DNA of 64,000 nucleotides from a virus. Position numbers and translations under genes: made by a program. The stretch is taken from positions 5,713 through 69,712 of IMG/VR virus record IMGVR_UViG_3300030098_000945. One strand, 5' to 3'. The notes beneath the pieces are model-generated. The model did no database searches and was not told where the DNA came from. It saw only the letters and a program-made list of their open reading frames with translations. Below, in pieces: positions 1-54,836 of this stretch (its first letter is position 1; every line of letters begins with the position of its first letter).

Positions 1-1
1 T

Positions 2-1459
2 GTACCGCTAGATCAAAGAGACAAAGCATTAGAAGAAGCAAAAAAAGATCCAAGATTACAACCAGATGATGTTCAAAAATTAATAACTTCTTTTAATGTT
101 AAAAAAACATCCATAGATCATAAGAATAGATCTAATGTTACTACTATGGTAGAAAATGTTAAAAAAGGATTTCCTTTAAGTCAAGCTGATTATGAGAATG
201 CTGTTAATATTGCAATCAATACAGAAGATCAAATAACTTTAAATAAATTAGAACAACTTGCAAAAGATGCAAATATTTACGCTCAGTTAGCAACCATGAG
301 TGTTGGCGAAATTGAAAATAGAAAAAATATTTTACTTGAATTTCAAAAAACAAAGGGATCTTTAAGTTTAGATGATACAAATAATTTAAGAATTACAACT
401 GAATATTTATCAAAATTAACAAGTGATTTAAACAAAGATCAACTAATGACAGCCAATGAAAGAAATATTGGTGTATCTATTCAAGATATTGGATTTGAAA
501 AATTATTAACAGGAGAATTAAAGCCAGAAGATTTTACAGAAAAAGTAAAACAAAGAATTGGAAATGCTTATGCCGTAGCAAATCATTATAAAAGGGATGT
601 TGTTTTTTTTACTAATAATGAAAAAAAAGCAATCCAAGCAGCATATCAACAAGCAGATACACCAGGTCAAATCATTAAATTAACAACGGCATTAGTTCAA
701 TCTTTTGGTATGGAAAGCGATAAGGCTTTTGCACAATTTAGTAAAGAAGATAGTTTTTTTGCACATATTGGAGGATTGGTTATGCAAACAGGCGGAGCTG
801 GAGATAATGTTAAGTTAGCTGTTGAAGGATTTTTATTAATGCAAGGTGAAGAAAATAAAAAAATATATTCTGTTAAAAACGAAGATAGAGCAAGTGTTGT
901 CGATGAATACAGCTCTGCTTTTTTAATGAACCGAGATACTCAAAATTCAACAATAGAGGCTGCAAATTATATTTATGCAGCTCAATTAAAAAATGCTGGT
1001 AAATCTGGTTTTGATAGTTTTGACAAATTTGCTTATGAGAAAGCATTTAAAATGGCAGCGGGTGCAACTTATGTAGCTGGAGTTATGGGATCTAAAAATT
1101 TTGATGCTTTTTACGGTGGCTTTGATGAACATAACGATAATAAAGTTTATATTCCAGGATGGTTACAAGAAGGTAAATTTGATGATGTTGTTAAAACATT
1201 AAAAGATCATCCAGAATTAATAGATATGGGTTCAACCAATGGTAAGGCTCCTGTTGCTATTAATGGAGAACTAATAGATGTATTTGCGGGTGATGCTCCA
1301 TATTTTATTAGTGTAGGTGATGGAGTTTATTTAATAGGTGTTGGTGATAATCCCAAAGATGTTACTGGTGAACCAAAGTATTTATTAAATAGTGATGGTG
1401 GATATTTCAAACTTGATCTCAATAAAATTAAAGGGGATCTACAACCTTATATACAATAA
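2..1459 (+). CDS. Internal virion (ejection) protein, 5'-truncated by window
   Basis: Frame is open from base 2 (the ATG at 146 is internal); large helical protein in the same position as 38478-40670. Confidence 0.65.
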   Translation, partial: VPLDQRDKALEEAKKDPRLQPDDVQKLITSFNVKKTSIDHKNRSNVTTMVENVKKGFPLSQADYENAVNIAINTEDQITLNKLEQLAKDANIYAQLATMSVGEIENRKNILLEFQKTKGSLSLDDTNNLRITTEYLSKLTSDLNKDQLMTANERNIGVSIQDIGFEKLLTGELKPEDFTEKVKQRIGNAYAVANHYKRDVVFFTNNEKKAIQAAYQQADTPGQIIKLTTALVQSFGMESDKAFAQFSKEDSFFAHIGGLVMQTGGAGDNVKLAVEGFLLMQGEENKKIYSVKNEDRASVVDEYSSAFLMNRDTQNSTIEAANYIYAAQLKNAGKSGFDSFDKFAYEKAFKMAAGATYVAGVMGSKNFDAFYGGFDEHNDNKVYIPGWLQEGKFDDVVKTLKDHPELIDMGSTNGKAPVAINGELIDVFAGDAPYFISVGDGVYLIGVGDNPKDVTGEPKYLLNSDGGYFKLDLNKIKGDLQPYIQ

Positions 1460-3972
1460 TGAGTATATTTTACGATACAAAAAACACAGAAACAATACAA
1501 CCATACGAAAGTTTAGCCAAAGGCAAAAGAACAGATTTTAGAGATAACTTTTCATCTGCTTGGGATGCTTTTACAAAAACTGAAATGATCTTATCTGAAA
1601 TAAACAATTTAGATGAGGCTTATGGTAATATGAATGAAATATTAACTAAAGCGGGTCATACTAATTTTATATCTCCAACTGATCCAGATAATTATATGGT
1701 GGATGATACAGAAGTACCACCTTCAAGAAGATCTTTAGAAGAAGCATATTGGAAACAAATTGCTGAAGTTATTGCACAAGATGAAAATTTAAAAAATCTT
1801 TTAGTTGAAGCTGGTTTAGATACCCAAGAAAATATGCACAAACTTATTGCAGAACAAAGTCATAGTGCTTGGAAAAATTTTGCAGATATTTCTGAAAGAG
1901 CTACAACAATGGGTAAAGTCGGTGGATTTACTGGTATAGCCTCTGGAGCATTTACAGATCCAGTAATGCTTGCAACGCTACCAATATCTATGATGTATTC
2001 TGTTCCAGCTAATTTTAGTAAAGCTGCTTGGAAAGTTGCAAAAATAGAAACAGTATTAGCTGGTATTGCCGAGACTGCTATACAATTAAAATCTCAACCT
2101 TATAGAAAAGAACTTGGTTTTGAAGATGCTGGTTTAGAAACTGGATTAAAAAATATTGCAATGGTTTCTCTTGCAGCTGGTACAATTTCACCAGCTTTGT
2201 TAGGAGTATTTAAAGCATTTGGTAAAGGTATTGAGGTTGGTAAAAAACATTTATTTAAACTATCTGATGAAGAGTTAAATACTGTTTCAAAAGAAATGGG
2301 AGAAATTAATCCTAAATTTAAAGATGAAACTTTAGATAATCATAAATTACCAGAAAAAGATAATCCTTTTCCAGACAATAGAGCTGGCAGAACAGAACAT
2401 AACGAAAGATTAAACGATACTTTAAAAGCAATTCAAAATGGAGAAGATGTAAATTTAGCAGCTCCTAGAAACCAAACAGTTCCAGATAATTTAGTTCCTC
2501 CAGGAAAAATTAAACCTGGAGAATTTTTTGATATTTTTGATAATGATGGAAATATTGTTAATGTTCAAGCTGTTGCAATAAGTAAAAAAACAGGAAGTAT
2601 TAAAATAAAATTAGCCGATGGTTCTGAAAGAGTTATATCTATAGATCCAAAATCTTCTGCTTTTCAAAGTATAAGAAATCCTAATTATGTAATTAGATCT
2701 GCTGGTTTAAATGCACAAGGTAAGACAGTTTCTCAATTAAAAAAAAAAGAATTAACACAATTAAGAAAAAAATTACAAGATAGAAAAAATCAAATGGAAA
2801 CTGAAGGCACGACTAATCAAGGTGCTTATAGAGATACATTGGAAGATTTAAACTCTATAGATTTTAACATCAATAAAGCTACAAACGAAACAAACTCTCC
2901 AAATATTAATAAAGCTAATTTTAATAAAAATGAAAGTAAGTTAGCTGAAGATTTAGAAAATGTTAAAGATTTTGATGTACCAAGTGAAGCAGCTTACAGA
3001 AATCAAGCCTTAAATAATGAAGTATCTATGTTTGACACATCTACTTCTTCTTCCATTAAAAGTGGAGCCGAGGCTGGTGCTGCTGCCAAAACATCGCCAA
3101 CAGTATTATCTGATAAACTCCAAGATTTAACTAAAGGATCCCAAAAAACAGACGCAACTCCAGTATCAGTTTTAGCCAAAGCTAATACTGTTCCACCACT
3201 ATTTCGTGGTTCTAAAACTAATAAAGTTGGTGATAAAAGTGCCATAACTAAAAAGGTAATATATCATAAATCCGATGATTTCAATACGATCTACAATACA
3301 TTATCTAAAAAAATTGAGGATGTTAAGAAAGAATTACAACCTATAGCAACAAAATATAATGGCGATTTAAAGGCAAGAGTAAAAGAGTTAAAAGAGTTAA
3401 ATAAAAAAACAAATAAAGGAATAAAAGCAGTGCATATTTCTGATTATTTGGGTGCTAGAATATCAACAGATACAATATTAGAGGCTAAACTAGCAGTAGC
3501 AGAAATTAATAAAAAATATAAAATTATTGGTGGTATTGATGATTTTTTAACTGATGCTGGCAGAGCTGGTAGTGAGTATAGAGCTATTCATATCCAGGCT
3601 TTAACTAATGATGGTTTTACATTTGAAATACAAATTAGAGTAAAAGATTTAGACCCATTAACAGAACAATCTCACACTATTTATAAAAAGAAAACATGGG
3701 CGGAAAAAGAATACACAGACGCAGAATATAATAAAATTGTAAAAGAAGAGGCGGAAATAAATAAAAAATTAAAAGCTAAATATTTTGAAATAAAAGATAA
3801 AGAATTTATTAAATTAAATAGCGATGATCCTTTAGATTTTCCAATACCTATCGGTCAAAGAGTAGATGAGGCTACAGGCGAAAAAGTAGCTCTAACTAAA
3901 ACAGCAAGAGAATTATTTGAAGAAGAAGGCAAAACTAAAACAATGTTAGAAAGATTGAAAGATTGCGTATGA
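1459..3972 (+). CDS. Internal virion (ejection) protein with C-terminal RelA/SpoT-family nucleotidyltransferase domain
   Basis: Hydrophobic GxxxG-rich N-terminal region (AFTDP) like 40670-41956; motifs RVK (~3376), DYLGAR (3442), YRAIH (3577), EIQIR (3625), SHTIYK (3670). Confidence 0.85.
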   Translation: MSIFYDTKNTETIQPYESLAKGKRTDFRDNFSSAWDAFTKTEMILSEINNLDEAYGNMNEILTKAGHTNFISPTDPDNYMVDDTEVPPSRRSLEEAYWKQIAEVIAQDENLKNLLVEAGLDTQENMHKLIAEQSHSAWKNFADISERATTMGKVGGFTGIASGAFTDPVMLATLPISMMYSVPANFSKAAWKVAKIETVLAGIAETAIQLKSQPYRKELGFEDAGLETGLKNIAMVSLAAGTISPALLGVFKAFGKGIEVGKKHLFKLSDEELNTVSKEMGEINPKFKDETLDNHKLPEKDNPFPDNRAGRTEHNERLNDTLKAIQNGEDVNLAAPRNQTVPDNLVPPGKIKPGEFFDIFDNDGNIVNVQAVAISKKTGSIKIKLADGSERVISIDPKSSAFQSIRNPNYVIRSAGLNAQGKTVSQLKKKELTQLRKKLQDRKNQMETEGTTNQGAYRDTLEDLNSIDFNINKATNETNSPNINKANFNKNESKLAEDLENVKDFDVPSEAAYRNQALNNEVSMFDTSTSSSIKSGAEAGAAAKTSPTVLSDKLQDLTKGSQKTDATPVSVLAKANTVPPLFRGSKTNKVGDKSAITKKVIYHKSDDFNTIYNTLSKKIEDVKKELQPIATKYNGDLKARVKELKELNKKTNKGIKAVHISDYLGARISTDTILEAKLAVAEINKKYKIIGGIDDFLTDAGRAGSEYRAIHIQALTNDGFTFEIQIRVKDLDPLTEQSHTIYKKKTWAEKEYTDAEYNKIVKEEAEINKKLKAKYFEIKDKEFIKLNSDDPLDFPIPIGQRVDEATGEKVALTKTARELFEEEGKTKTMLERLKDCV
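3003..3245 (-). CDS. Nested antisense 80-aa protein, candidate immunity/antitoxin for the RelA/SpoT domain
   Basis: Globular acidic sequence (VFWDPLVKSW...LMEEEV) while the sense frame here is an S/T/A/P/K linker; TTGAAA...TGATATATT promoter-like sequence just upstream. Confidence 0.65.
   Translation of the reverse strand: MALLSPTLLVLEPRNSGGTVLALAKTDTGVASVFWDPLVKSWSLSDNTVGDVLAAAPASAPLLMEEEVDVSNIDTSLFKA
3258..3284 (-). promoter_or_regulatory. Putative promoter of the nested antisense ORF
   Basis: Minus strand TTGAAA-tcatcggattta-TG-a-TATATT, 12 nt before the ATG at 3245. Confidence 0.45.
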
Positions 3973-6506
3973 GTAGTTTTAAACAATGTATTATTAATGG
4001 TTTTAAAGAAGGTTTAATTAGTGCTGAACAAGCTGATAAATTAAATAAAAATTTAGACGAAGTTACCGAATTTTATCAATTTAGAAAAGGGTTAAGCAAA
4101 TCAGAGGCGGAAAGAGCAGCTGCTAAAAAAACATACGATGAATTAAAAATAGAAGAAGCTAACAAATTAAGAATTACCTTATTACAAAAAGCAAAGATTG
4201 ATGAAATAACTACTTTATTTGCAACCTATAGAAATGCAAATGGTGAAATAGACATGGCTAATGCTTATAGATCTCTTTATGCCGTAGATCAACACGCTTT
4301 AACTCCAAATATAGAAAATCAAATTATTAATGAGGGAAATAAAGCAAATAAATTTATGGTAAATGTTTTAGAGCAAATGAGATATAAATTAGGTGGTAGG
4401 CAAACCAAACTTCAAAAAGCTACTTTAAGATTAGTGGTTAAAGAGCTAATGGGAGAAAATACTGGAAATGTAAATGCTAAACAATTAGCGGATGCCTGGA
4501 GACAAACAGCTGAACATTTAAGAAAAAGAGCCAATAGTTTTGGTATGAAAATATTATCAAGAAAAGATTGGGGATTACCACAATTACACGACACATTATT
4601 AGTTAAATCCGTTTCTAAAGAAGATTGGATTGATTTTATTTTACCTAAATTAGATTTAGATAAAATGGTTAATGAAACAACTGGTTTACCTTTTAATGAT
4701 AAAACAATTAGACAAGCATTAAGTGGAGTTTATGATAATATTTCAACAGAAGGAATGGCAACCTTTAAACCAGGAACATCTGCTTATGGTAGAGCTTTAC
4801 ATAATAGAAGATTAGATCATAGATTTTTAGCTTTTAAAAGTGCTGACGATTGGATGGAATACCAAACAAGATTTGGTTCTCCAGATCCATTTAAAACAAT
4901 GCTAGAGCATATCAACGGTATGTCGAGAGATATTGCTATGCTTAAAATACTTGGACCAAACCCAGACGCAACGCATACTTGGGCGTTAGGTATGATTAAA
5001 AAACAAATGAAAATTGATGCAGCTGCGGAGGCACAAGGTAAATTTAAAAGAAAAAAATTAAATAAATTTAGAAATGAAGAAGATAGAACTAATTGGATTA
5101 TAGAAAATATAAATAATTTATACGCACACCATAAAGGAACTTTACACAAACCTATTGATGGATTTTTTGGAAGAACTTTTGCGGCTTTAAGGCAGTTATT
5201 AACTTCTGCACAATTAGGAGGTGCTGCAATTATGGCAATTACTGATTTTCATTGGTCGAGAATGACTGCTAAATTTAACGGTTTACCAGCAACTAAAGCT
5301 AATGCAACAGCCGTAAAATTACTAGCTGAAGGGATTAAAAAAGATAAAGCTCTAGCAAGAACAGCAATTAGACTTGGATTAATAACTGAAAGTTGGAATA
5401 CTATTGCTGGTGTTCAAACTAGATACTTAAATGATGTAGAGGCTCCAGTTTGGTCTAAAAGAGTTTCTGATTTTGTATTAAGAGGATCTGGATTATCACA
5501 CATAACTCAATCTGGTAAATGGGCGTTTGGTATGACAGTAATGGGAGAGCTTGCAGAACAAAGCGGAAAATCATTTAATAAATTAGATCCAAAATTATCA
5601 GCACAATTAAAAAAATATGGCATAGGAGCTGATGAATGGGAAATTATTAGAACAACAAAATTATATGATGCTGGTGCAGATGAACCAACAATGATTGGTA
5701 AAGGTGCTACTTTTTTAAGACCAGACGATATTCATGCTAGAGCTGATTTAGATGAGGCAACAAGAGAATTTTTAACTACAAGGTTAATGACTTATGTTAC
5801 TAATGAAACTAACTTTGCTGTACCATCATCATCTGCAAAAGGTAGAGTAACTTTAGCTGGATCTTCTCAACCAGGTACATTTAAAGGGGAATTAATGAAC
5901 TCTGTTTTAATGTATAAAAACTTTCCAATAACATTAGGAATGACACATTTGAATAGAGGGTTTCAACAAAAAGGATTAATTGGTAAAGCCAAATATTTAG
6001 TACCTATGATTATTGGTGGTACTGTAATGGGATCTTTAGCTTATGAAATAAAACAAGTTGCAGCTGGTAAAAAACCAACTTCTCCAGAAAATATGAATAC
6101 TAGATATTGGATGAATGCTATGGTTTATGGTGGTGGATTAGGAATATTTGGTGATTTCTTATTTTCAGATCAAAATAGATATGGTGGATCTTTTAGTAAA
6201 ACATTAGCTGGACCAGTAGCATCTTTTATTGGGGATGCTATCATGTTAACATTTGGTAATCTTCAACAAGCATTAACTGGAGAAAAAACTAATGCTGGTA
6301 AAGAGCTTGCAGCATTTATTCAAAGATATACTCCTGGATCATCCCTTTGGTATACAAGATTAGCTTATGAAAGACTTATAATGGATACACTTGAAAAGTT
6401 AATAAATCCTAATTTTGACAAAGATAATAGAAGAAATATTAAAAAATTAAAGTCTCGAACTGGACAAGAATATTGGTGGAAACCAGGAGAAATAACACCA
6501 AATTAA
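3969..6506 (+). CDS. Large internal virion (ejection) protein
   Basis: Position before the tail fibre; C-terminal hydrophobic GGGLGIFGDF motif shared with 41956-44442. Confidence 0.75.
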   Translation: MSSFKQCIINGFKEGLISAEQADKLNKNLDEVTEFYQFRKGLSKSEAERAAAKKTYDELKIEEANKLRITLLQKAKIDEITTLFATYRNANGEIDMANAYRSLYAVDQHALTPNIENQIINEGNKANKFMVNVLEQMRYKLGGRQTKLQKATLRLVVKELMGENTGNVNAKQLADAWRQTAEHLRKRANSFGMKILSRKDWGLPQLHDTLLVKSVSKEDWIDFILPKLDLDKMVNETTGLPFNDKTIRQALSGVYDNISTEGMATFKPGTSAYGRALHNRRLDHRFLAFKSADDWMEYQTRFGSPDPFKTMLEHINGMSRDIAMLKILGPNPDATHTWALGMIKKQMKIDAAAEAQGKFKRKKLNKFRNEEDRTNWIIENINNLYAHHKGTLHKPIDGFFGRTFAALRQLLTSAQLGGAAIMAITDFHWSRMTAKFNGLPATKANATAVKLLAEGIKKDKALARTAIRLGLITESWNTIAGVQTRYLNDVEAPVWSKRVSDFVLRGSGLSHITQSGKWAFGMTVMGELAEQSGKSFNKLDPKLSAQLKKYGIGADEWEIIRTTKLYDAGADEPTMIGKGATFLRPDDIHARADLDEATREFLTTRLMTYVTNETNFAVPSSSAKGRVTLAGSSQPGTFKGELMNSVLMYKNFPITLGMTHLNRGFQQKGLIGKAKYLVPMIIGGTVMGSLAYEIKQVAAGKKPTSPENMNTRYWMNAMVYGGGLGIFGDFLFSDQNRYGGSFSKTLAGPVASFIGDAIMLTFGNLQQALTGEKTNAGKELAAFIQRYTPGSSLWYTRLAYERLIMDTLEKLINPNFDKDNRRNIKKLKSRTGQEYWWKPGEITPN

Positions 6507-6509
6507 TTA

Positions 6510-6580
6510 TAGACACTATGGATAAATTTTAATAAAGAGAAACATAGTGTAGGATTTTAATGCCTACAAATCACTTTCTC
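6510..6580 (+). promoter_or_regulatory. Conserved tail-fibre leader: TAGACA-N17-TAAAGA promoter plus GAGAAA..GTAGG/CCTAC..TTTCTC inverted repeat
   Basis: Same layout at 44450-44521 despite divergent upstream genes. Confidence 0.55.
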
Positions 6581-6600
6581 ACAACCTAAATATAAAAATT

Positions 6601-9195
6601 ATGACAATATCAAGTACAACTTTACGTAACTCATATAGTGGTAACGGATCCACGACTGAGTTTTCGTACACATTTCCGATTAATTCAACTTCAGAAATTT
6701 CTGTAATTGAAAGATCGGCTACTGGAACAGAAACAGTTAAATCAGAAGGATCTGGTTCTACTAACTATTCAATAGTTGACAATGGAGCTAGCGGTGGAAC
6801 GGTAACTATGGTTACAGCTCCCGCATCGGGAACTACTTTGGTTCTTTTAAGAAACACAACTTTAACGCAAGAAACAGATTATGTTGCAAATGATCCTTTT
6901 GGAGCTGAAACGCATGAAGATGCTTTGGATAAACTCCAAATGCAAAACCAAGAATTACAAGAAGAATTAGATAGATCATTTAAAGTTTCAAAAACAAATA
7001 CTATTACTTCAGCTGAATTTACAACATCTGCAACAGACAGAGCTAGTAAAACTTTAGGATTTGATAGTTCAGGAAACTTAACAACTGTTGCTGATTTCCT
7101 TCCAGCTGGAGGAGACAGCGCACAATTTACTTATTCAACAACTACAACAGATAGTGATCCGGGTTCAGGATATATTCGTTTTAACAACGCAACTCTTTCT
7201 TCTGCGACTATTGCTTATGTGGATGACAATGAAGCAAATGGAACTGATGTTTCAGCTTGGGTTCAAAGTTTTGATGATGTAACTGGTAATGCGACTAACA
7301 GAGGAAGAATTAGATTATCAAAAGCAAATACCTTAGATGTATGGCATGTTTGGAAAGTTTCAGGAGCTGTTACAGATGCTAGTGGTTATACAAAATTAGC
7401 TTTAACTTATATTGATGGAGCTGGTGCTTTAGCAGCAGATGATAAAGTATTTTTATCATTTACTGCATCTGGAGAAGATGGAGCAATTCCGGGTTACTAT
7501 TATAAATTTGATACTGGAACAAGTGATGCTGATCCGGGAGCTGGAGAGATTTCTTTTAACAACGGAACCTACGCATCTGTAACCGCAATTTATATTGACG
7601 ATGCTGATGCAAATGGAGTTACTACTCAAACCGATACGATTACTTGGGATGATAGCACTTCAACAATTAAAGGCTATATTCATATAGTTGATATTAACGA
7701 CAGCACTACATACGCAAGATTTTCTATAACTGGTAGTTCAACCGATGCTTCTGGCTATAATAAATTAGCTGTTACTCATTTGGTTTCAAATAATACTTTT
7801 TCTGCTGACGATGAGCTTTCAGTTCACTTTACAAGACAAGGAGATAAAGGAGATACTGGTGCAACTGGTTCTACTGGAAGCACAGGATCAACTGGCTCAA
7901 CTGGAGCAAGTGGAACTAACTCACAACTTTCAATGACTTGGAGTAGCTCAACTTCTGATGCTGATCCAGGTAGTGGTAAAATAGCTTTTAATCATGCAAC
8001 ACTTTCAAGCGTTTCAATTTTATATGTAGATGATGCAGACGATGCCTCTGCTGATATTTCTGGTTATGTTCAATCTTGGGATGATGTTTCAAACTCAACA
8101 GCAAGAGGAATTGTAACTATAACTAAAGAAGGAACTGCATCAACTTATGCAATCTTTAAAGTAAGTGGTGCTGTAACCGATGCTTCTGGTTATACAAAAG
8201 TTCCAGTAACTCATGTTGTATCCAATGGTTCATTTTCTAATACAGATGGAGTTGGAGTTCATTTTGGTTTTTCTGGTGCTGATACTTCTTTAGCTTATAA
8301 ATTAGAAGGTACTAATTTTAGTAATTCTTTATTAATTGGTCATTCAACAACAGGAACTTTAAGCTCTGCTGAAAAAAATACAGGAGTTGGTCTAGCCGCT
8401 TTAGATGCAATAACACAAGGTGATAAAAATGTAGCAGTTGGTTATTCATCTGGTTCATCCATAACTACAGGTAATAGAAATATGGTGTTTGGTAATGAAG
8501 CTGGTGATGGTTTAACAACTGGTAGTGATAATGTTAATATTGGAGATAGTGCTGCTTATTATAATGTTTCTGGTAGCGAAAATGTTGCTATAGGTAAAAG
8601 TGCTATGCAAGGTGCATCTGGTCAAAGTAATTCTTATAATATTGCTTTAGGAGTAGATGCTTTAAAAAATATAACTACTGGTGGTCGTAATATTGGAATT
8701 GGTTATCAATCTGGAGATAATATAACTTCTGGTTCTGGTAATGTAATGATTGGTGCTGGTATAGATTTAGGTTCTGCAACAGGAGCAAGACAATTAAAAA
8801 TTGCTGGTAATGATGGTTCAACAACTACGACTTGGATTGAAGGCAGTAGTGCTGGAGTAGTAACTTTTAATGCTGCTAATGTAACTCAACAAGCAATTAC
8901 ATCTTCATCAAATGCTGTAGCTTGGGATGCTTCTGCTAAACCAAATGCTTATCATCAAACAACTGAAAATACGACTTTTTCTGCACCAAGTAATGCAGTT
9001 GAAGGTGCATTTATTTGTTTAGAAATTAATTACAACGGATCGCATACGATTGGCTGGAATACAGTTTTTGAATTTGCAGCAAGTACAGAACCAACTGAAA
9101 CTGCAACAGATGGTAAAACCGATCTTCATGTCTTTAGATATAATGGCGCTGTTTGGCAAGAAGTAGGAAGAACATTAAATTTAAGTGAAAGTTAA
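6601..9195 (+). CDS. Tail fibre protein (three DPGxG repeats, short GXX repeat, YadA-like NxAxG head repeats)
   Basis: T7-fibre-like N-terminus (YSGNGSTTEFSYTF); homologue at 44541. Confidence 0.85.
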   Translation: MTISSTTLRNSYSGNGSTTEFSYTFPINSTSEISVIERSATGTETVKSEGSGSTNYSIVDNGASGGTVTMVTAPASGTTLVLLRNTTLTQETDYVANDPFGAETHEDALDKLQMQNQELQEELDRSFKVSKTNTITSAEFTTSATDRASKTLGFDSSGNLTTVADFLPAGGDSAQFTYSTTTTDSDPGSGYIRFNNATLSSATIAYVDDNEANGTDVSAWVQSFDDVTGNATNRGRIRLSKANTLDVWHVWKVSGAVTDASGYTKLALTYIDGAGALAADDKVFLSFTASGEDGAIPGYYYKFDTGTSDADPGAGEISFNNGTYASVTAIYIDDADANGVTTQTDTITWDDSTSTIKGYIHIVDINDSTTYARFSITGSSTDASGYNKLAVTHLVSNNTFSADDELSVHFTRQGDKGDTGATGSTGSTGSTGSTGASGTNSQLSMTWSSSTSDADPGSGKIAFNHATLSSVSILYVDDADDASADISGYVQSWDDVSNSTARGIVTITKEGTASTYAIFKVSGAVTDASGYTKVPVTHVVSNGSFSNTDGVGVHFGFSGADTSLAYKLEGTNFSNSLLIGHSTTGTLSSAEKNTGVGLAALDAITQGDKNVAVGYSSGSSITTGNRNMVFGNEAGDGLTTGSDNVNIGDSAAYYNVSGSENVAIGKSAMQGASGQSNSYNIALGVDALKNITTGGRNIGIGYQSGDNITSGSGNVMIGAGIDLGSATGARQLKIAGNDGSTTTTWIEGSSAGVVTFNAANVTQQAITSSSNAVAWDASAKPNAYHQTTENTTFSAPSNAVEGAFICLEINYNGSHTIGWNTVFEFAASTEPTETATDGKTDLHVFRYNGAVWQEVGRTLNLSES

Positions 9196-16450: not shown

Positions 16451-16527
16451 TGGTCTGGGTGGGAGGATTTGAACCTCCGATCCTCTGCTCCCAAAGCAGA
16501 TGCGATACCAGGCTTCGCTACACCCAG
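16451..16527 (-). tRNA. trnP: tRNA-Pro(TGG), complete with encoded CCA
   Basis: Acceptor CTGGGTG/CACCCAG-A-CCA, anticodon arm TCTGC-TT-TGG-GA-GCAGA, T arm GGAGG-TTCAAAT-CCTCC. Confidence 0.95.
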
Positions 16528-17464: not shown

Positions 17465-18631
17465 TTATCCTTTTATTAGATTGTTTATGGCAGCTAGTCT
17501 TTTTGTCTTATTCATATTAAGATCCTTTTGATAAAACTTTCCAAATGTTTTTAGATTGGTCCAGCCATATCTATCTTGGAATTGTTTATCAGTAAGAATT
17601 TTCATGTCTCTAACTAAAGAACTATTGAACGGTCTAAACACAGCAAATCCTTCTTGCCAATCAATACCCAGTTTTTTAGTAGATTGTTTAATTTTTTTAT
17701 AAGCTGTTCCTTTAGTAATATTAAATACTCTTTTTAATAAACCTTCTTTTTTAGGAAAAATCTGGTTCTGCATATGTAATTTTAATATATTTAAACAAAG
17801 ATCTGACACCTCAACGGATCTTCTGGAGCTGTCGGTCTTTAAAAAGTTTTCTCTAAAATTACTTTTTTTATCTAAAGAATGTCTAAAGTGAATTAATCCT
17901 TTATCAAAATCTACATCATTATAACAGATTGCAACAACTTCATTTGGTCTAGCACCTGTCTCAGCTGCCAATCTATAAAGAGCTTTCATTTTTATATCGT
18001 GTTCTTCATTACATAATCTAACAACATTTGCATATTGTGGGATCCAATAATCTTTTGGAACCTGTTGAAAGAAATTTTTGTGGAATTGAAAGTCTAAGAT
18101 ACTTTCGTCTATATGCCATTTATTTGCTTTGCAGTATTTTAAAAATAACTTAAATTCTGCAACAGCATATTTAATAGTTTTTTTACCAATGGTTTTATTT
18201 AATTGAATTAAAGTTCCTTTATTTCTATTAACCCATTTTTTACTGCTATTAACTCTTGGAAGGGTATACTTTAAAAAATCTGCTAAGATATACTCATTAA
18301 CCCAAACTTTGTTAATATACGGCTGGATATGGAGCTTTAACAGGCTAATTTTAACATGGTTACTCTCTTCCTGGTTAAGTTTATCGTTTTTTAAATACTT
18401 AAAATAATCTGAAAAAGCATTTTCAAATTTAACTCTTCCACCAGGTAAACTAATTTCTTCTGGTTTTAAACTATCTTTATATATATTAGCTTGTCTTTTT
18501 TGATTTGGTTGAAACTTAACTGTTTCTCCATTTTCTTTAACGGTAATTTTTTGTTTACCTTCATAACCAACAACCTTCCAATAAATAAGATGACCCTTGG
18601 AGTTATTAACTCTTTGAACTTGAAATTTCAA
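17465..18631 (-). CDS. int: Tyrosine integrase
   Basis: TGARPNE, LKT, AVFR, YGW, FY catalytic positions; adjacent att site. Confidence 0.9.
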   Translation of the reverse strand: MKFQVQRVNNSKGHLIYWKVVGYEGKQKITVKENGETVKFQPNQKRQANIYKDSLKPEEISLPGGRVKFENAFSDYFKYLKNDKLNQEESNHVKISLLKLHIQPYINKVWVNEYILADFLKYTLPRVNSSKKWVNRNKGTLIQLNKTIGKKTIKYAVAEFKLFLKYCKANKWHIDESILDFQFHKNFFQQVPKDYWIPQYANVVRLCNEEHDIKMKALYRLAAETGARPNEVVAICYNDVDFDKGLIHFRHSLDKKSNFRENFLKTDSSRRSVEVSDLCLNILKLHMQNQIFPKKEGLLKRVFNITKGTAYKKIKQSTKKLGIDWQEGFAVFRPFNSSLVRDMKILTDKQFQDRYGWTNLKTFGKFYQKDLNMNKTKRLAAINNLIKG

Positions 18632-19195
18632 TTAAACAGCTCCTTGTTGTTTTTGTTTTTCTTTTTCTGCATATTCTTTTTTCTTCTGCTCCCAATATGG
18701 CTCATAGTCTTTGCTGCCATATTTTGGATTACTGTTGAAAGTTACCCAAGCTCCAGAAGAAACTTTTACTGCCTGCTCAACTGGTTTTGGATAATCATAA
18801 CCTTGAACGGAACCACCAGTAACAGCTCCACCTCCATTGTTATCTGCAGCAGCAACAGATCCATCTGGCATTAACCAAATATCTTCATAGTATTTGTAAT
18901 CAACCATGCCATCAAAACCTGCACCAGAATAAGTATCTACAAACTTTTGCATCTCATCTGTTTGTTCTTTGGTAACTCCTTTTTTCCAACCATCCTGTAA
19001 ATAAATATCTACAGAGCAGCCTCCTGCAAAATACTTACTGCTTTTTGCAAACTTGTATTGAGGATATTTCTTTTTAATACCTTCAAGAATTAAAGTTGCT
19101 AACTCTGTAGCAGAAATTGAAACATAGGGATTTTTATTTCCCTGGGAAACTTCTGCATCATATTTAGCTTTGCATTTTTGATATAGTTTATTCAT
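18632..19195 (-). CDS. LPD29-like protein
   Basis: ELATLI...YPQYKF...AGGCSVDI...DG...FDGMVDY pattern recalled for the LPD29 domain. Confidence 0.6.
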   Translation of the reverse strand: MNKLYQKCKAKYDAEVSQGNKNPYVSISATELATLILEGIKKKYPQYKFAKSSKYFAGGCSVDIYLQDGWKKGVTKEQTDEMQKFVDTYSGAGFDGMVDYKYYEDIWLMPDGSVAAADNNGGGAVTGGSVQGYDYPKPVEQAVKVSSGAWVTFNSNPKYGSKDYEPYWEQKKKEYAEKEKQKQQGAV

Positions 19196-22069: not shown

Positions 22070-22998
22070 AGTAAACCCCATAGTTTCATTGCTGCTTGTT
22101 TGTGATCTCCTAAACCGTTCCAAAAGAAGTGGTCGAAATCACATGGAATATCTTGGAACCAAGTAGTTTTACCAGCATGGTTTTCCATTACTCTTTCTCT
22201 ACGTTTGGCAACTATTGCCATTTTATTTAATTGAAGTTCTAAATTTTCTGGTTTTAAATCATCGCAATTATCTGGAGTAAAAACATTATAATCTTTTTCA
22301 TTAATTACTAATAAGTGAGGTTTCTTTTTTTTATTGCAAGCTAACCAATAGAAAGCAACTTGGAGAATGTGATCTTGCCAACCTAAATAACCTTCATCTA
22401 TTTTAGGTAAAGAATAATTAGATGTACCATCTTTTTTGGGTCTGTTTTTCTTTCGCCATTTTGTTTTAATTTCAACAAAATTATTTTCATCTTCTATATC
22501 TATTCTACCGATACAAGGTAATAAGCAATTAGGTAATTCTAAACTAACGGATCTCTCGCAATCTATTGGATTTTTTAATTTAATTTCTCTTAATCCATAT
22601 TTTAATTGTTGGAATGTTAAAGCTAAACCTTGTCTATTTATATCGTGTTGCTCTCTGTCTTTATCATCTGCGGGATCATATAAATTAAATTTTTCTATAA
22701 TTTTTTCAAAAACTTTTCTTTGCGGTGGTATTTCTTTTCTGGTTAATCCTGTACCTTTAACATATTCCCAAACATAATTGCCAAATTGTAATTGCGCCAT
22801 ATCGCCAATACAAACTCCAGAAAACATTTTAGAATTAATAGGCAGCTCTCGTCTCTCTTCTTGGGATAAGTATAAATATTTGTAACTCCAAATATCATCA
22901 TTGGAATTTATTTGAGATGGGGAGTGATGGTTGATGCCGTATAGCTCAACCCATTTAGGTAATTCTTTTATATTGTCTAAAAATTCGTCTTTTTCCAT
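22066..22998 (-). CDS. PD-(D/E)XK exonuclease (recombination)
   Basis: HHSPSQ, GRIDIE...VEIKT, QVAFY motifs. Confidence 0.8.
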   Translation of the reverse strand: MEKDEFLDNIKELPKWVELYGINHHSPSQINSNDDIWSYKYLYLSQEERRELPINSKMFSGVCIGDMAQLQFGNYVWEYVKGTGLTRKEIPPQRKVFEKIIEKFNLYDPADDKDREQHDINRQGLALTFQQLKYGLREIKLKNPIDCERSVSLELPNCLLPCIGRIDIEDENNFVEIKTKWRKKNRPKKDGTSNYSLPKIDEGYLGWQDHILQVAFYWLACNKKKKPHLLVINEKDYNVFTPDNCDDLKPENLELQLNKMAIVAKRRERVMENHAGKTTWFQDIPCDFDHFFWNGLGDHKQAAMKLWGLL

Positions 22999-38477: not shown

Positions 38478-40670
38478 ATGGCAATAAAAATATATCAAAC
38501 ACAAATTAGACCAACAACTGAAGTTAAGGAAAGAGCATCAACTCCTGGTATGAAAATATCATTAGATACTGCTGCCGCTCCTGGCAGAGCTTTTGGTAAT
38601 ATGATGGCTGCTGGCGAAAAACTTTATGTAAAATACGAACAACAAAAATCTGAAAATGAAGTTATTGAAGCTGGTAAAAATATAGATGAAAATATTATTT
38701 CAGATCATCCAACTGGAGGATCTTCTTATTCTAAAAAAGGATTAGGTACTACTGTTAATGAATTGTCTGAAAGTACAAAACCTGATGAAGCATTAACATC
38801 ATATAAATTAGCTTGGCAAGCAGAATACGATAGAATTTTACCAACTCTTAAAGGTAAATTTTCTAAACAATTATTTAAAAATTATATGAATAAAAGATTT
38901 ATTAGTGAATCTGGTTCCATAAGAGATAAGACTTTTGTTAATTTTAGAAATGAATCAAGAGTTTTAAAAATAAATGAATTAGATAATATTACAAAAAGAT
39001 TATCAAATAATGAAAAAGGCACATTACCTCATAATCAAGCATTAATTGACTTTAATGCTTTTTTTTCATCACAAAGTAATTATGATTTATTTGGCGATAA
39101 ATTTAAACAATTAGAATTTCAAACTTTAAATAATATTGATGTTTTAAAAATTCAAGCTGATTTAAGTAAAGATGCTAAAGCAACTTTAAAAAAATTTAAT
39201 GCTGGAGAATATAAAAATTTAGATACAGAAAATCATACAAGGTTAAAAAATAAAATTACTTTAGCTGCACAACAACAAGCTTTAGGAGAAATAGGTAGTG
39301 ATGAAGAAAGAGCTAAATTAGGATTGGAAAGTAAAGTTGATTTATCAGAAAATTTAAAATTATTTGAGGGATATGAAACTTATAAAGATGTTAAATTAGC
39401 TGTTGATGTAAATAATTATGTTAGAGGAGCAGTATCACAAGTACATACCTCAAAACAATCTGATTTAGCACAAATTAAATTATACGAATTAAAGGGTACT
39501 GGAGACGAAATTGCAGCAAAAAGAAAAGCTAATGTAGTTATACAAAATGCTATTTCAGAAAGAATAAAAGCAGTTAAAGAAAATGATATAGTTGGTTATA
39601 TAAATAAGATTGATCCAGAATTAGCAGACTTAGATAATAGAATCCAAAATTCAAATGACGAAGAAACTATAAAATCTTTAATCAAAGAAAAAAAATTATT
39701 ATTAGATCAAAAATTTATTGAACTTGATATAGAAGAAAGCAAACAATTTTATTTAAGTAAATCAGAAGTTCAAGCAGCTGTCTTAACAATTACATCTCCA
39801 GACAAAATATGGCAAGAAAAGAAAGCAACCTTATTAAATTTTGGAGAATTGTATGGCAAGGAGAACTTACCTCAAATTATGAAACAAATGGCTGGAGAAA
39901 ACTTACCAGAGCATTTTGTTATAGCAATGAGTACCAATAGTTCTGCTTTAAACCAGGATATTTTACAATCTCATGACATTAAAGATTTAGAAAAAAATGC
40001 TTTAAATGAAACATCTGCATCAAAAAAAGATATTACAAAAAGAATAGCAAACAATCTTGAAAAATGGGAAGAGGTTATTGAAAATCAAAATTTAGGAACT
40101 GAGGATGCTATTAAATATAAAGCAATGGTAGAAAAAACTTTATATAGAGTAGCTCTTTTAAGAATAGATAATGATAAAAATAATGATTGGAATAAAGCAG
40201 TTGATAGTGCAACAGATCAATTTTTAAGTGATTATTCAATAGCTCCAGAAAAAACTTATTTTATTCCCCAAGATGTAAATGGAAAATTTGTTAATCAAGG
40301 AATTGTTCAAACAAAATCTGAAGCAATTAAATTAGATGTTGAAGAAGGAAGTTATTTAGATAATTTTATGGGAAAAGATGGTTATCAACATTATGCAAGT
40401 AATAGCGATATTGATGGAGTATCAAAAGAAGATATAGATATTAGAGTTAAAAGTGCAATTCAAAATAATAATATGTGGTTATTAAATGATACTTCTACTG
40501 GTTTAGTTTTACATTTTACTTGGTTTGATGGAACTAAAGTTCCAGTAGTAAATAGCTCTGGACAAAAAATTGAATTTAATTTTTTAGATACAGATTACAA
40601 TGCACCAGGTACAAAAACTCCTTTAACTGTCATTGAAACTTACGATGTATTTGAGGAGCCAAGCGCATAA
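38478..40670 (+). CDS. Internal virion (ejection) protein
   Basis: SD GGAG then MAIKIY; position in the module. Confidence 0.7.
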   Translation: MAIKIYQTQIRPTTEVKERASTPGMKISLDTAAAPGRAFGNMMAAGEKLYVKYEQQKSENEVIEAGKNIDENIISDHPTGGSSYSKKGLGTTVNELSESTKPDEALTSYKLAWQAEYDRILPTLKGKFSKQLFKNYMNKRFISESGSIRDKTFVNFRNESRVLKINELDNITKRLSNNEKGTLPHNQALIDFNAFFSSQSNYDLFGDKFKQLEFQTLNNIDVLKIQADLSKDAKATLKKFNAGEYKNLDTENHTRLKNKITLAAQQQALGEIGSDEERAKLGLESKVDLSENLKLFEGYETYKDVKLAVDVNNYVRGAVSQVHTSKQSDLAQIKLYELKGTGDEIAAKRKANVVIQNAISERIKAVKENDIVGYINKIDPELADLDNRIQNSNDEETIKSLIKEKKLLLDQKFIELDIEESKQFYLSKSEVQAAVLTITSPDKIWQEKKATLLNFGELYGKENLPQIMKQMAGENLPEHFVIAMSTNSSALNQDILQSHDIKDLEKNALNETSASKKDITKRIANNLEKWEEVIENQNLGTEDAIKYKAMVEKTLYRVALLRIDNDKNNDWNKAVDSATDQFLSDYSIAPEKTYFIPQDVNGKFVNQGIVQTKSEAIKLDVEEGSYLDNFMGKDGYQHYASNSDIDGVSKEDIDIRVKSAIQNNNMWLLNDTSTGLVLHFTWFDGTKVPVVNSSGQKIEFNFLDTDYNAPGTKTPLTVIETYDVFEEPSA

Positions 40671-41956
40671 TGATTAATGTTGGTTTCGGACAATTTGAAA
40701 AATCAAAAGAAGAGATAGGAGCTACATTTAATAATTTATCTGTAGGTTTTTTTGAGGCACAAAAATCAAATATAGTTAATACTTGGAATTACAATCCTAC
40801 TTATTCTTTATGGAGAAAAGGAGAAGAGTTATCAGCTTATAATCAAGATAACACTTTAGTTGATAGAAATGAATTAAACGAAAAATATGGAAAACTTGGT
40901 TTAAATTTTAAAGAAGATACTAGACAATCTGTTGTTGATTATTTAGTTAAAAGAAAAGAATTAGAAATAGAAAGAGCTAATAAAGTTGCTAGGGGACCAC
41001 AAAATTTGTGGGCTAAAGGTTCTTATTTTTTAACTTCTTTAGCAACAAGTTTTGCAGATCCCATTAACATTGGTGCATCTTTCGTTCCTGTAATCGGTCA
41101 AGGAAAATTTGCAGCTATGGTTGCAAAATCTGGAAAAAATATAGCAAGATTAAAAAAAGGTGCAGTAGAGGGTTTCGTTGGAAACTTAGCTGTTGAGCCA
41201 ATAGTTTATGGAGTACATAGATCTCAACAATCCGATTACGATCAATACGATGCTTTTATAAATGTTGCAGCTGGTGGATTAATTGGTGCTAAATTTCATT
41301 TTGCCTTTGGTAGATTAGGAGATTATATGGCAAAAGTACAAGGTAAGCCAAATATTTACCAAAGATTAGCTGCAATTTCTCCAGAGCATCAACAAGCTTT
41401 ATTAAAATATACTGTTGGCAAACATATTAGAGGAGAAAAAGTAGATACTGGAGATTTAATTGTAAATAAATCAAGAACAGGAGATAAACAATTAAATCAA
41501 TTAGACGATCAAATTTCAGAATTTAAAACTTTATATGCAAATGCTATTAAAAAAGGAGATAGAAAATCTGCTAAAATTTATTTACAAAATTTAAGAAATT
41601 TACAAAGAACAGAAAGACAAATATTTGAAGCTAAGAAAAAAGCAAACGATCAAGCATTAGAAAAAGAAAGAGCAAATTTAAAAGTTAGAGATGATACAAC
41701 AAACATAGCAAGGGAAGAGTTAAACCTTAAAGAAAAAAATACTACTGAACTTGAAGCAGAAGCAGAAAATTTAAATCAAAGACAAAAATTACATCAAAAA
41801 CAATTAGACGTTAAAGATGAAGATTTAGACGAAATAGATATTGGTTTAAAAAGTGATAGAGCGGAAATAGATAAAATAGATAATAACATTAAAAATAAAA
41901 CAACAATTAGAAACGCAATAAAAGCTGGAGCTAATTGTGTCAAAAGAGGAACTTAA
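40670..41956 (+). CDS. Internal virion protein lacking the RelA/SpoT domain
   Basis: Hydrophobic DP.N region and C-terminal C-V like 1459-3972, but half the length. Confidence 0.7.
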   Translation: MINVGFGQFEKSKEEIGATFNNLSVGFFEAQKSNIVNTWNYNPTYSLWRKGEELSAYNQDNTLVDRNELNEKYGKLGLNFKEDTRQSVVDYLVKRKELEIERANKVARGPQNLWAKGSYFLTSLATSFADPINIGASFVPVIGQGKFAAMVAKSGKNIARLKKGAVEGFVGNLAVEPIVYGVHRSQQSDYDQYDAFINVAAGGLIGAKFHFAFGRLGDYMAKVQGKPNIYQRLAAISPEHQQALLKYTVGKHIRGEKVDTGDLIVNKSRTGDKQLNQLDDQISEFKTLYANAIKKGDRKSAKIYLQNLRNLQRTERQIFEAKKKANDQALEKERANLKVRDDTTNIAREELNLKEKNTTELEAEAENLNQRQKLHQKQLDVKDEDLDEIDIGLKSDRAEIDKIDNNIKNKTTIRNAIKAGANCVKRGT

Positions 41957-53414: not shown

Positions 53415-54836
53415 ATGCGGTTTATCGCATCAATACTTTTGCTGATAATATTAACCCTTACAATTTCAGCAGAAGAGATAACGACAGATAACTTATTAAC
53501 TAACGGCAACTTTGAAACGGGTAATGCTAATGGTTGGACTACAAGTGGAAATACACAAGTAGTATCTGATTGCTGCGAATTAAATAATGTAACCAGCAAT
53601 TATGATTTAGAGTTTGGCGATAGCGGATCTATTACACAAGATGTAAATTTAACTACTAATACTATTACCCAAGATATGTTGGATAATGGTATTACCCTTA
53701 CCCAGGTAACTGAAGTTCAAAACGGAGAATGTAATGTATCTGGATGTTGGGGTGGTCAAGGTGCAGCTGATACCTTTACTATTAATCTTAATATAAAGAA
53801 TAGTTCTGGAACAGTTATTGCAACCATGACAACTGTAAGAACGGATGTAACCGGTATCAATGGAGCTAACTTTACAGATACTTTAATATATACCGGTAAT
53901 GGTTCTAACATTGGTAACACTACTATTTCAGCGATAGATGCTAATGCTCCAGCTACTCTTGGTGGACCCAACGTAGATAACATCTCTTTAAGAATGACAT
54001 ATAATAATGTTGTTTTAGAAGTTGAGACACAAGAAGCATTACAAGAATTTGAAGAAACAGTTTTATTTGAAGAAGAAGAAACTTTTTTTACTGAAGAGTT
54101 TGTTGAATTATTTACTGAAGAAATACAAACTATAGCAGCATCTCCATTACCCACAGAAGAAAAAGCGGTAGAGATAACGGCTGCTATCATAGAGTTTGAA
54201 GAAAAGACAGAAACAAAAGTAACCAAAGCTGAAATTCAGACTACTGCTTTATTACCTCCACCAACAATGATGGCAGAGGAAGAAGAAGAAAAACCAGCAG
54301 AGATAGCAATGGCTATTATGGAAGAAACTCAAGAAGAGGAAGCTCCACCAGAACCTAAAGAAGAAATTATTGAAGAAACAAACAATGTTCAAGAAGAAGA
54401 AAAAACAGAGAGCAAATCAGAAGTTAAAACAGAAGAAAAACAGAAGCCGAAAGAGCAAGAAAAGCCGAAGAAAGTAAAGACTAAAGAAACTAAATCAAAG
54501 AATACTAAAGTTGCAAAATTAGAAGCAGCTATGGATAAGGTTGATAAGGTAGTTAAAGATACTGCAAAGAACCTTGAAGTAAAAAATATTATAAAACTAG
54601 ATGCTATGCAAAGCGATATGGTTTTAGCTGAGTATATGAACCAAGAGTTTTATAAGAGTAAAGATATATATTTAAACCAGGTTATTATGTTTGATAATAG
54701 AGACATTTATAACAATGTTAATTTGGTTCAATATACAAGTAATGATCCAATAAACATTAAAGAAAGTATCTTACAAGACATCAACATACAAAAACAAAAA
54801 CTATTAATGGAGATAGAGGTATTAAGAAATGGGTAA
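53415..54836 (+). CDS. Exported protein: carbohydrate-binding-like domain + Glu-rich linker (unit B only)
   Basis: Signal peptide; NLLTNGNFETG..GW...GPNVDNI; long E/K-rich region. Confidence 0.65.
   Translation: MRFIASILLLIILTLTISAEEITTDNLLTNGNFETGNANGWTTSGNTQVVSDCCELNNVTSNYDLEFGDSGSITQDVNLTTNTITQDMLDNGITLTQVTEVQNGECNVSGCWGGQGAADTFTINLNIKNSSGTVIATMTTVRTDVTGINGANFTDTLIYTGNGSNIGNTTISAIDANAPATLGGPNVDNISLRMTYNNVVLEVETQEALQEFEETVLFEEEETFFTEEFVELFTEEIQTIAASPLPTEEKAVEITAAIIEFEEKTETKVTKAEIQTTALLPPPTMMAEEEEEKPAEIAMAIMEETQEEEAPPEPKEEIIEETNNVQEEEKTESKSEVKTEEKQKPKEQEKPKKVKTKETKSKNTKVAKLEAAMDKVDKVVKDTAKNLEVKNIIKLDAMQSDMVLAEYMNQEFYKSKDIYLNQVIMFDNRDIYNNVNLVQYTSNDPINIKESILQDINIQKQKLLMEIEVLRNG

Follow-up and report, generated by a model that had tools for sequence, protein, structure and literature searches.

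Introduction

Toxins built on alarmone-synthetase-like enzymes are described together with small cognate proteins that neutralise them, as for Tas1-Tis1 of Pseudomonas aeruginosa and for the toxSAS enzymes, whose pairs are adjacent and separately encoded in the portions of these accounts drawn on here (PMC10083569, PMC7229694). For the MuF-Apk2 toxins of temperate phages, iapK and aph1 are given, in the part of the report considered, as separate genes following apk2 (PMC12226406). Here we analyse a window of 64,000 nucleotides (nt), bases 5713-69712 of the 69.7-kb virus record IMGVR_UViG_3300030098_000945, in which a gene of 837 amino acids (aa) encodes a RelA/SpoT-type domain in the C-terminal part of its product and harbours, on the opposite strand of the linker just before this domain, an open reading frame (ORF) of 80 codons at 3003-3245. 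Comparison with relatives, together with structure modelling, makes it highly probable that this ORF is a real, functional protein-coding gene. If it is, the chances that its product acts on the RelA/SpoT domain appear evenly balanced, and the complete proposal, a nested gene with its own promoter and with a product that is the cognate inhibitor of the RelA/SpoT domain, remains tentative, falling somewhat short of an even chance.

The locus resembles MuF-Apk2, as far as the cited part of that work describes it, in the C-terminal position of a RelA/SpoT-type pyrophosphokinase domain in a particle-associated protein of an apparently temperate phage, and it resembles the Apk2-IapK pair in the small cognate enzyme-blocking binder that is proposed here (PMC12226406). 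It differs in that no MuF-type domain was found in the 837-aa protein (Pfam, E ≤ 1) and in that the candidate binder is nested on the opposite strand within the same ORF, upstream of the domain. The nesting also sets it apart from Tas1-Tis1 and toxSAS, as does the enzyme domain itself, which aligns best to the long Rel enzymes.

In the operons of pore-forming colicins, the immunity gene is oriented opposite to the toxin gene and has its own constitutive promoter, so that the immunity protein is made while the toxin is repressed; the opposite orientation and, putatively, the own promoter recur at our locus, whereas the colicin immunity gene lies between genes, and sequence and delivery are unrelated. 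Type I toxin-antitoxin systems use as antidote an antisense RNA whose gene overlaps that of the toxin; the antidote proposed here would share the antisense, overlapping arrangement but would be a folded protein.

Embedded antisense genes with evidence of purifying selection and with expression data have been described in Escherichia coli O157:H7 and P. aeruginosa, and those of Pseudomonas are presented, in the portions of the reports used, as evolutionarily novel (PMC9927249, PMC8850804). The ORF of the window is, like them, wholly inside and antisense to its host gene and apparently under purifying selection; unlike them, as they are portrayed there, it is part of an older family that also has stand-alone members, it has been conserved between phages that diverged deeply, and it is known from sequence alone. 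In our literature searches, neither a protein antidote encoded antisense within the reading frame of its toxin nor a RelA/SpoT domain in an internal protein of a pelagiphage came up.

The nested antisense frame and its conservation

The elements of the locus are the following (window coordinates).

1459..3972, plus strand: gene of the 837-aa protein, presumed internal virion (ejection) protein (ORF list)
3003..3245, minus strand: putative nested antisense gene, 80 codons plus TGA stop, ATG start (ORF list, conservation, model, homologues)
3004..3246, plus strand: sense-frame linker, aa 516-596, predicted to be disordered (alignment, AlphaFold)
3258..3284, minus strand: promoter-like element, putative promoter (read from the sequence)
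3376..3693, plus strand: RelA/SpoT-type nucleotide pyrophosphokinase (alarmone-synthetase-like) domain, aa 640-745 (Pfam PF04607)

The antisense ORF lies wholly within the 837-aa ORF, just upstream of the RelA_SpoT domain, and its coordinates and translation are exactly those given in the original prediction, which was made from the letters of the window; the product is acidic (10 D/E and 4 K/R, counted on the translation), as had been stated there. In the antisense frame in question the wobble positions coincide with those of the sense frame, and a stop requires Tyr, His or Gln in the sense protein, preceded by a codon with a suitable third base. The frame is therefore easily kept open by a linker that has neither Tyr nor His; from stop to stop the run comprises 86 codons, and runs of 79 and 77 codons are found elsewhere in the same frame of the same gene. 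The local GC content rises to 0.39. At least four further ORFs of 100 aa or more in the window, those noted here having 110-156 codons, overlap longer ORFs of the opposite strand (4817-5149, minus; 18491-18874, plus; 22436-22777, plus; 53756-54226, minus).

It is only in comparison with relatives that the ORF gains significance. Scans of viral contigs yielded 10 loci with the whole 837-aa protein as query and 28 with its C-terminal third, whose sense sequences are 39-99% identical to that of the window; the codon alignment was built of 21 full-length genes, which after removal of the near-identical L012, L013 and L019 left 18, and comprises at least 8 lineages below 70% protein identity. The antisense frame was intact, with the same ATG, both Trp codons and the same stop, in 26/26 fully covered loci, and the remaining two of the 28 are cut by contig ends with the frame open as far as covered. 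All of the 16 loci found with the antisense domain as query carry it nested in opposite-strand frames of 1053-1530 aa, one of them ended by the contig end. Since a search with the antisense domain is biased to finding the ORF, a search was also made with the enzyme domain alone, taken from the most distant branch, and here too the antisense frame is present at 9/9 loci, open for 70-124 codons and recognisable in sequence. Antisense stops in homologous linkers would have spoken against the proposal; the frame was found open in all relatives, and the co-occurrence with the RelA domain extends over both sets (26/26 and 9/9).

When antisense windows of 80 codons were examined over the whole gene in all three antisense frames, only 7 proved open in at least 9 of the 18 sequences, all of them inside 3007-3264; each of the 7 is open in at least 15/18 and two are open in all 18. 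As no other such window reaches even 9/18, the other long antisense runs of the window's gene are not conserved. From its sense protein and codon usage, each sequence would have this frame open with a probability of 0.03-0.27 (mean 0.13), values that are not simply to be multiplied over sequences that are related to one another. In diverged relatives the frame is open beyond the level imposed by the sense protein. In every relative examined the ORF is nested directly upstream of the enzyme domain, so that a small partner candidate is linked to the enzyme throughout, although linkage by itself is no proof of partnership.

Selection in the antisense frame

Third-position C is rare in the codons of this family (6.9%), and of 807 columns examined only 4 inside the gene have C at the third position in at least 90% of sequences. 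Three of these four near-invariant wobble C's are precisely the bases that make the antisense ATG and the two antisense Trp codons:

3120, 3141 and 3243, plus strand: wobble C's completing antisense TGG, TGG and ATG, respectively (C in 18/18 at each)

At two of these columns the sense residue varies (Leu/Ser/Thr/Phe at one, Ala/Ser at the other) and the C is kept. Beyond the overlap, CAx is preceded by C in 63/649 cases and by T, which would give an antisense stop, in 228/649; the wobble C before Gln and Ile, found in 18/18 within the overlap, occurs in 6-10% elsewhere.

Synonymous conservation over the overlap (0.57-0.77) is not raised above the gene mean of 0.71 and forms no peak, and no general peak is to be expected because the antisense wobble lies on the sense wobble. 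At positions where the sense third base is free and the antisense codon box is split, 0.83 of the sequence pairs agree in their antisense residue within the overlap, and 0.69 do so outside it (split-box test, Mann-Whitney p 0.018). The substitutions point in the same direction. The mean BLOSUM62 score of differing positions in the overlap is -0.16 for the sense and -0.03 for the antisense protein, whereas in 11 control windows it is +0.34 to +1.09 for sense and -0.42 to -0.77 for antisense; substitutions in the overlap are therefore tolerated by the antisense protein at least as well as by the sense protein. Taken together, the wobble C's, the split-box test and the reversal of the BLOSUM62 pattern bear out purifying selection in the antisense frame itself, which the original prediction had named as the thing to look for.

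Fold of the product and searches for similar structures

The AlphaFold model of the antisense protein, computed from the 18-row alignment, has a mean predicted local distance difference test score (pLDDT) of 86.8 and a predicted template modelling score (pTM) of 0.75, with four beta strands followed by short helices. As a matched control, the peptide read from this DNA in the sense frame was modelled with the sequences of those 18 loci and gave pLDDT 58.8 and pTM 0.12, with one 5-residue helix and otherwise coil. The expectation that here, contrary to the usual asymmetry of shadow frames, the antisense product would be the globular one thus agrees with the models. The sense linker had at the same time been called low-complexity text, and this holds insofar as it is predicted to be coil; it is not junk, since 24/84 of its alignment columns are invariant.

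The first ~58 residues of the antisense protein form a small beta-sheet domain that is also present in stand-alone proteins (see below), so that the product has both a predicted fold and relatives. Among known structures no convincing match was found: the best Foldseek hit of the model on the PDB has E 0.48, the wide VIA-align search reached at best Z 3.3 with single beta-propeller blades, and the search of predicted viral structures in BFVD gave a best E of 0.14. A profile search of the PDB with the antisense ORF returned a Cas7 as its best match (E 0.28), and Pfam, PADLOC and ESM Atlas gave nothing for the antisense ORF and its stand-alone relatives. Neither Tis1, IapK nor antitoxin chains were listed by the PDB profile search, Foldseek or VIA-align, the presence of IapK in the PDB copy used being unconfirmed; the likeness to IapK-type proteins that had been suggested for the ORF found no support in sequence profile or fold.

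The profile of the antisense protein also weakly matches many proteins with repeats, for example P0024 (668 aa, 7 stretches), which looks WD40-like by eye, and the PDB chain DOA1. Judging from these matches and from the single blades returned by the fold searches, the antisense domain may resemble one blade of a beta-propeller.

Stand-alone homologues and rearranged relatives

A profile search of 1.84 billion proteins gave 54 matches at E ≤ 0.001, and a second search 145; many of these represent the nested ORF again, as called on short contigs, whereas the others include stand-alone proteins. On the metagenome contig L070 a 145-aa gene (5001-5438), across which there is no opposite-strand ORF of at least 60 aa, encodes a protein that aligns with the antisense profile at hhalign 98.3%, with 36% identity over 56 columns, and a protein from alphaproteobacterial metagenome-assembled genomes, named hypothetical in its source, does so at hhalign 96%. 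An abundant family of ~106 residues combines the domain with a charged helical tail; it includes P0151, found on 11 contigs of up to 16.4 kb, which is 44% identical to the window's antisense ORF (BLASTP, E 1e-11) and shares 61% identity, over its head, with the ORF nested in a relative of 1052 aa. Several database relatives have hydrophobic tails or an N-terminal hydrophobic segment.

The stand-alone gene of L070 is accompanied by a gene of the Rap1a immunity family (Pfam, E 3.4e-8, above the cut-off), with an integrase upstream. In the surrounding region (1383-7322), some ten small genes come after this tyrosine integrase, several of them with signal-peptide-like starts by eye, and the region looks like an island of immunity genes.

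The ~106-aa family was encountered neither in cultured phages nor in the collection of 2.9 million viral contigs; scans of viral contigs with P0083, P0063, P0061 and A10 gave only nested copies or nothing, loci being obtained with the P0063 type alone, and two scans of genome collections for the stand-alone family returned nothing. Longer fused forms were not found at E ≤ 0.001 among proteins of 255-2000 aa, which is weak evidence.

In relatives of 1050-1110 aa a second overlapping ORF of 83-99 codons, here called X, lies just upstream of the antisense ORF; it shares the strand of the host gene but uses another frame, and the window's 837-aa gene has no X. Its positions are:

L048, 3466-3717, plus strand: ORF X
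L040, 5299-5568, minus strand: ORF X
L067, 5290-5589, minus strand: ORF X
L052, about 4020-4270, minus strand: ORF X

The last 35 residues of X are 63% identical to the tail of P0151. Since the antisense ORF corresponds to the head of P0151 and X to its tail, the two halves of one stand-alone protein lie here on opposite strands of the host gene. In P0061, P0085, P0089, P0098, P0020, P0031 and P0036, a nested-type antisense domain is joined directly to an X-type tail, as if a segment of ~200 bp had been inverted relative to L050/L052. Programmed inversion was considered for these joined proteins and set aside, as no convincing inverted repeats were found in the relatives and inspection of the presumed break points by eye showed none either. 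P0005, a singleton from a contig of 560 bp, combines the antisense domain with a tail ending ...GGMPGGMP...EEVD, which looks like the end of a eukaryotic Hsp70; this contig is probably chimeric.

The promoter-like element

Upstream of the antisense ATG there is a promoter-like order of a -35 TTGAAA (3284-3279), a spacer of 15 nt and an extended -10 TGaTATATT (3266-3258), with 12 nt from the latter to the ATG at 3245-3243. The claim of promoter-like text 12 nt before the start codon is therefore accurate, and the element recurs in relatives: variants of TTGAAA-N15-TG.TATAAT-N9/12-ATG were found throughout the 18 aligned sequences, and in the distant branch TTGACA or TCGACA and a -10-like hexamer precede the start (by eye). 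A consensus promoter scanner did not list the element at 3258..3284 because it demands a spacer of 16-18 nt. Much of the -10 follows from common AT-rich Leu-Tyr-His codons. The G of the -35, on the other hand, requires the sense Phe to be encoded by TTC, and TTC is used in 12/12 sequences that have Phe there, the family's Phe usage elsewhere being TTT 600 : TTC 41. We infer that the element works as the antisense gene's own promoter. With only 12 nt between it and the ATG, a transcript would have a very short leader.

Of sequencing runs, 20 were matched, a single one being RNA (oligo-dT, contigs only, share 0.13); its nine small contigs lie on 1-8000, and none at 3003-3290, which bears on antisense expression in neither direction.

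The RelA/SpoT domain

The presence of a RelA/SpoT domain in the 837-aa protein, proposed earlier from the translation, is substantiated by the PF04607 RelA_SpoT match (E 5.8e-9, 36.7 bits at a cut-off of 27). The family profile matches solved Rel enzymes with a best E of 1.8e-6, and in the profile alignment the motifs D..G.R, Y...H and E.QIR stand in register with the matching residues of the solved enzymes; D62, R67, Y107, H111, Q113, E123 and Q125 are invariant in 8 diverse relatives. The domain thus has the synthetase motifs looked for in a RelA/SpoT-homologue enzyme. In the alignment of the domain's profile with structures, no Tas1 or toxSAS chain appeared at E ≤ 1. A complex predicted from the enzyme domain (A1, residues 95-329) and the antisense protein scored 0.17, against a mark of 0.32, and counts neither way.

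Genomic setting

The 837-aa gene is flanked upstream by a 485-aa gene (phrog_992, PHROG 'head protein') and downstream by an 847-aa virion structural gene (phrog_684). The 837-aa protein itself has no PHROG match, so that its virion or ejection role is deduced from the position of its gene, and it is accordingly only presumed to be an internal, ejected protein of the particle. The portal protein of this marine phage is ~56% identical to that of HTVC010P-type Pelagibacter phages, and the sole match to the 837-aa protein among the cultured phages searched is one of 15% coverage in a Vibrio phage. No small gene flanks the 837-aa gene, in agreement with the claim that an adjacent immunity gene is lacking.

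The window contains two related podovirus-like units in tandem, at 1-23900 (unit A) and 24600-62100 (unit B), both with structural genes and with like-sized ORFs at matching positions in the ORF list; tandem prophages or an assembly join of two relatives could be the cause. A tRNA-Pro gene is located at 16451-16527. Unit A, which holds the nested ORF, also encodes a tyrosine integrase and an HTH_3 (CI-type) repressor-type protein. Where unit A has the 837-aa gene the units are not alike, and the gene of unit B at 40670..41956, formerly taken for a counterpart lacking both the enzyme domain and the ORF, matches in position only: BLASTP revealed no similarity to the 837-aa protein (best E 2.5). 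Being unrelated, it lends no weight to the argument that had been built on it. The antisense-protein profile matches a single place in the window's own record, namely 3003-3245.

Among the longer relatives, those at L040 4295-7456 (minus), L048 1557-4715 (plus) and L067 4274-7606 (minus) have a mid-protein stretch ...DGHQRLGLAK..., which we take to resemble a ParB/sulfiredoxin-type motif. The enzyme domain and the nested gene thus ride on host proteins of differing make-up.

Discussion

We propose that the nested gene would be transcribed from its own promoter-like element, written within the sense codons ..IYHKSDDFN.., into a nearly leaderless mRNA. With such a promoter and mRNA the product could be present in cells whose late structural operon is shut down, such as lysogens. 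In the weakest step of the scheme, the product would be an immunity protein that inhibits the alarmone-synthetase-like domain, for which the opposite strand codes just a few codons downstream. It would shield from that enzyme cells that carry the phage or are assembling it, and likewise lysogens superinfected by a related phage, and the domain would be passed on together with its inhibitor as a single unit.

The grounds for an immunity role are circumstantial. The ORF is constantly placed directly before the enzyme domain in host proteins whose architecture otherwise differs, and there is no other small gene beside the 837-aa gene. The stand-alone homologue of L070 adjoins a Rap1a-family immunity gene; integrase and HTH_3 repressor-type genes are present in the unit; and toxin domains of this kind are in general accompanied by a cognate inhibitor, which by analogy would be expected here as well.

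A number of observations weigh against these proposals. As to the gene itself, the length of the ORF is within chance in this single sequence, and the nested gene is known from sequence and model alone. In one distant relative Arg replaces the first Trp, and in three the start lies 4 codons further upstream, one of these starts being GTG. The split-box signal is modest, and the independent signal is confined to a limited number of third positions, because most of the antisense conservation follows from sense conservation; the relatedness of the sequences, mentioned above, likewise restrains the use of the per-sequence probabilities. As to the promoter, the 837-aa gene shows no excess of promoter-like sites (8 listed by the scanner, 11.3 expected), the 15-nt spacer is atypical, and AT-rich codons yield -10-like text cheaply. 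As to the function, the toxicity of the RelA/SpoT domain is an assumption, and its nearest solved relatives are housekeeping long Rel enzymes rather than known toxins. By sequence or fold the antisense protein bears no likeness to a known immunity or antitoxin protein in the searches reported above, the immunity-island context is a single locus, and a particle protein that is packaged and ejected may not require an antidote at all.

Considering these points, the strongest competitor, to which we give appreciable credit while still holding it rather doubtful, is that the ORF is expressed and its product does something other than act on the RelA/SpoT domain: it might block superinfection at the envelope, affect the ejection protein in another way or have a host-directed role, and the linker would simply be the place where a disordered sense segment tolerates a second frame. 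All the evidence for a gene fits this equally well, the hydrophobic tails and N-terminal segments of several relatives hint at membrane association, and the lack of likeness to known immunity proteins would be no surprise. What it leaves to coincidence is the constant position directly before the domain (9/9 and 26/26) while the host protein ranges from 837 to ~1530 aa, which a functional pair predicts. The one stand-alone context seen, moreover, adjoins a gene of an immunity family.

We regard it as improbable that the ORF is merely a remnant, i.e., a once stand-alone reversed gene that was read through when two genes fused and under which an antisense promoter or RNA is now selected (e.g., for damping the late genes), or nothing at all, and no protein is made. 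Such an origin by capture is in itself plausible, since stand-alone homologues exist, and the conservation of the promoter-like element would suit an antisense RNA. A remnant would decay. Here, instead, rare synonymous C's preserve the start, the stop and the two Trp codons in lineages with no more than 37-60% identity between their sense proteins, no sequence has lost the open frame although the expectation is ~0.13 for each, and the antisense substitutions are unusually conservative. Least credible of all is a chance by-product, in which a Ser/Thr/Ala/Pro-rich linker without Tyr or His leaves the frame open and sense conservation mimics antisense conservation, for although the runs of 79 and 77 codons beside that of 86 and the restriction of stops to sense Tyr, His and Gln codons would agree with it, it is already contradicted by the open-window control (no other 80-codon window open in even 9/18), by the wobble C's (18/18, 6-10% elsewhere), by the BLOSUM62 pattern, by the confident folding of the product and not of the sense peptide, and by the stand-alone homologues.

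The preferred interpretation, that of a nested gene whose product inhibits the adjoining enzyme domain, can be extended to a cassette encoded on both strands, in which the particle delivers the enzyme, the antidote, antisense and under its own promoter, protects lysogens, and the stand-alone relatives are cellular 'orphan' copies, kept by cells against injected enzymes; in its entirety we consider this extension unlikely. The halves of P0151 on opposite strands of the host gene in one branch would then record how the capture happened.

To our knowledge, well-supported stretches that code for protein on both strands are few, and the ORFs concerned are mostly young and lineage-specific. In the present case it is the nested frame that is folded and older, with stand-alone relatives, and the host gene reads only a disordered linker across it. 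This gives a concrete picture of how a fusion of two genes can come about when a small reversed gene between them is read through. Standard gene callers cannot find such nested genes, and phage annotation consequently misses them. If the product indeed inhibits the neighbouring domain, the locus would represent a toxin-antidote layout without a report in the literature searched, and the effect of a particle-delivered RelA/SpoT enzyme on abundant marine bacteria would become testable.

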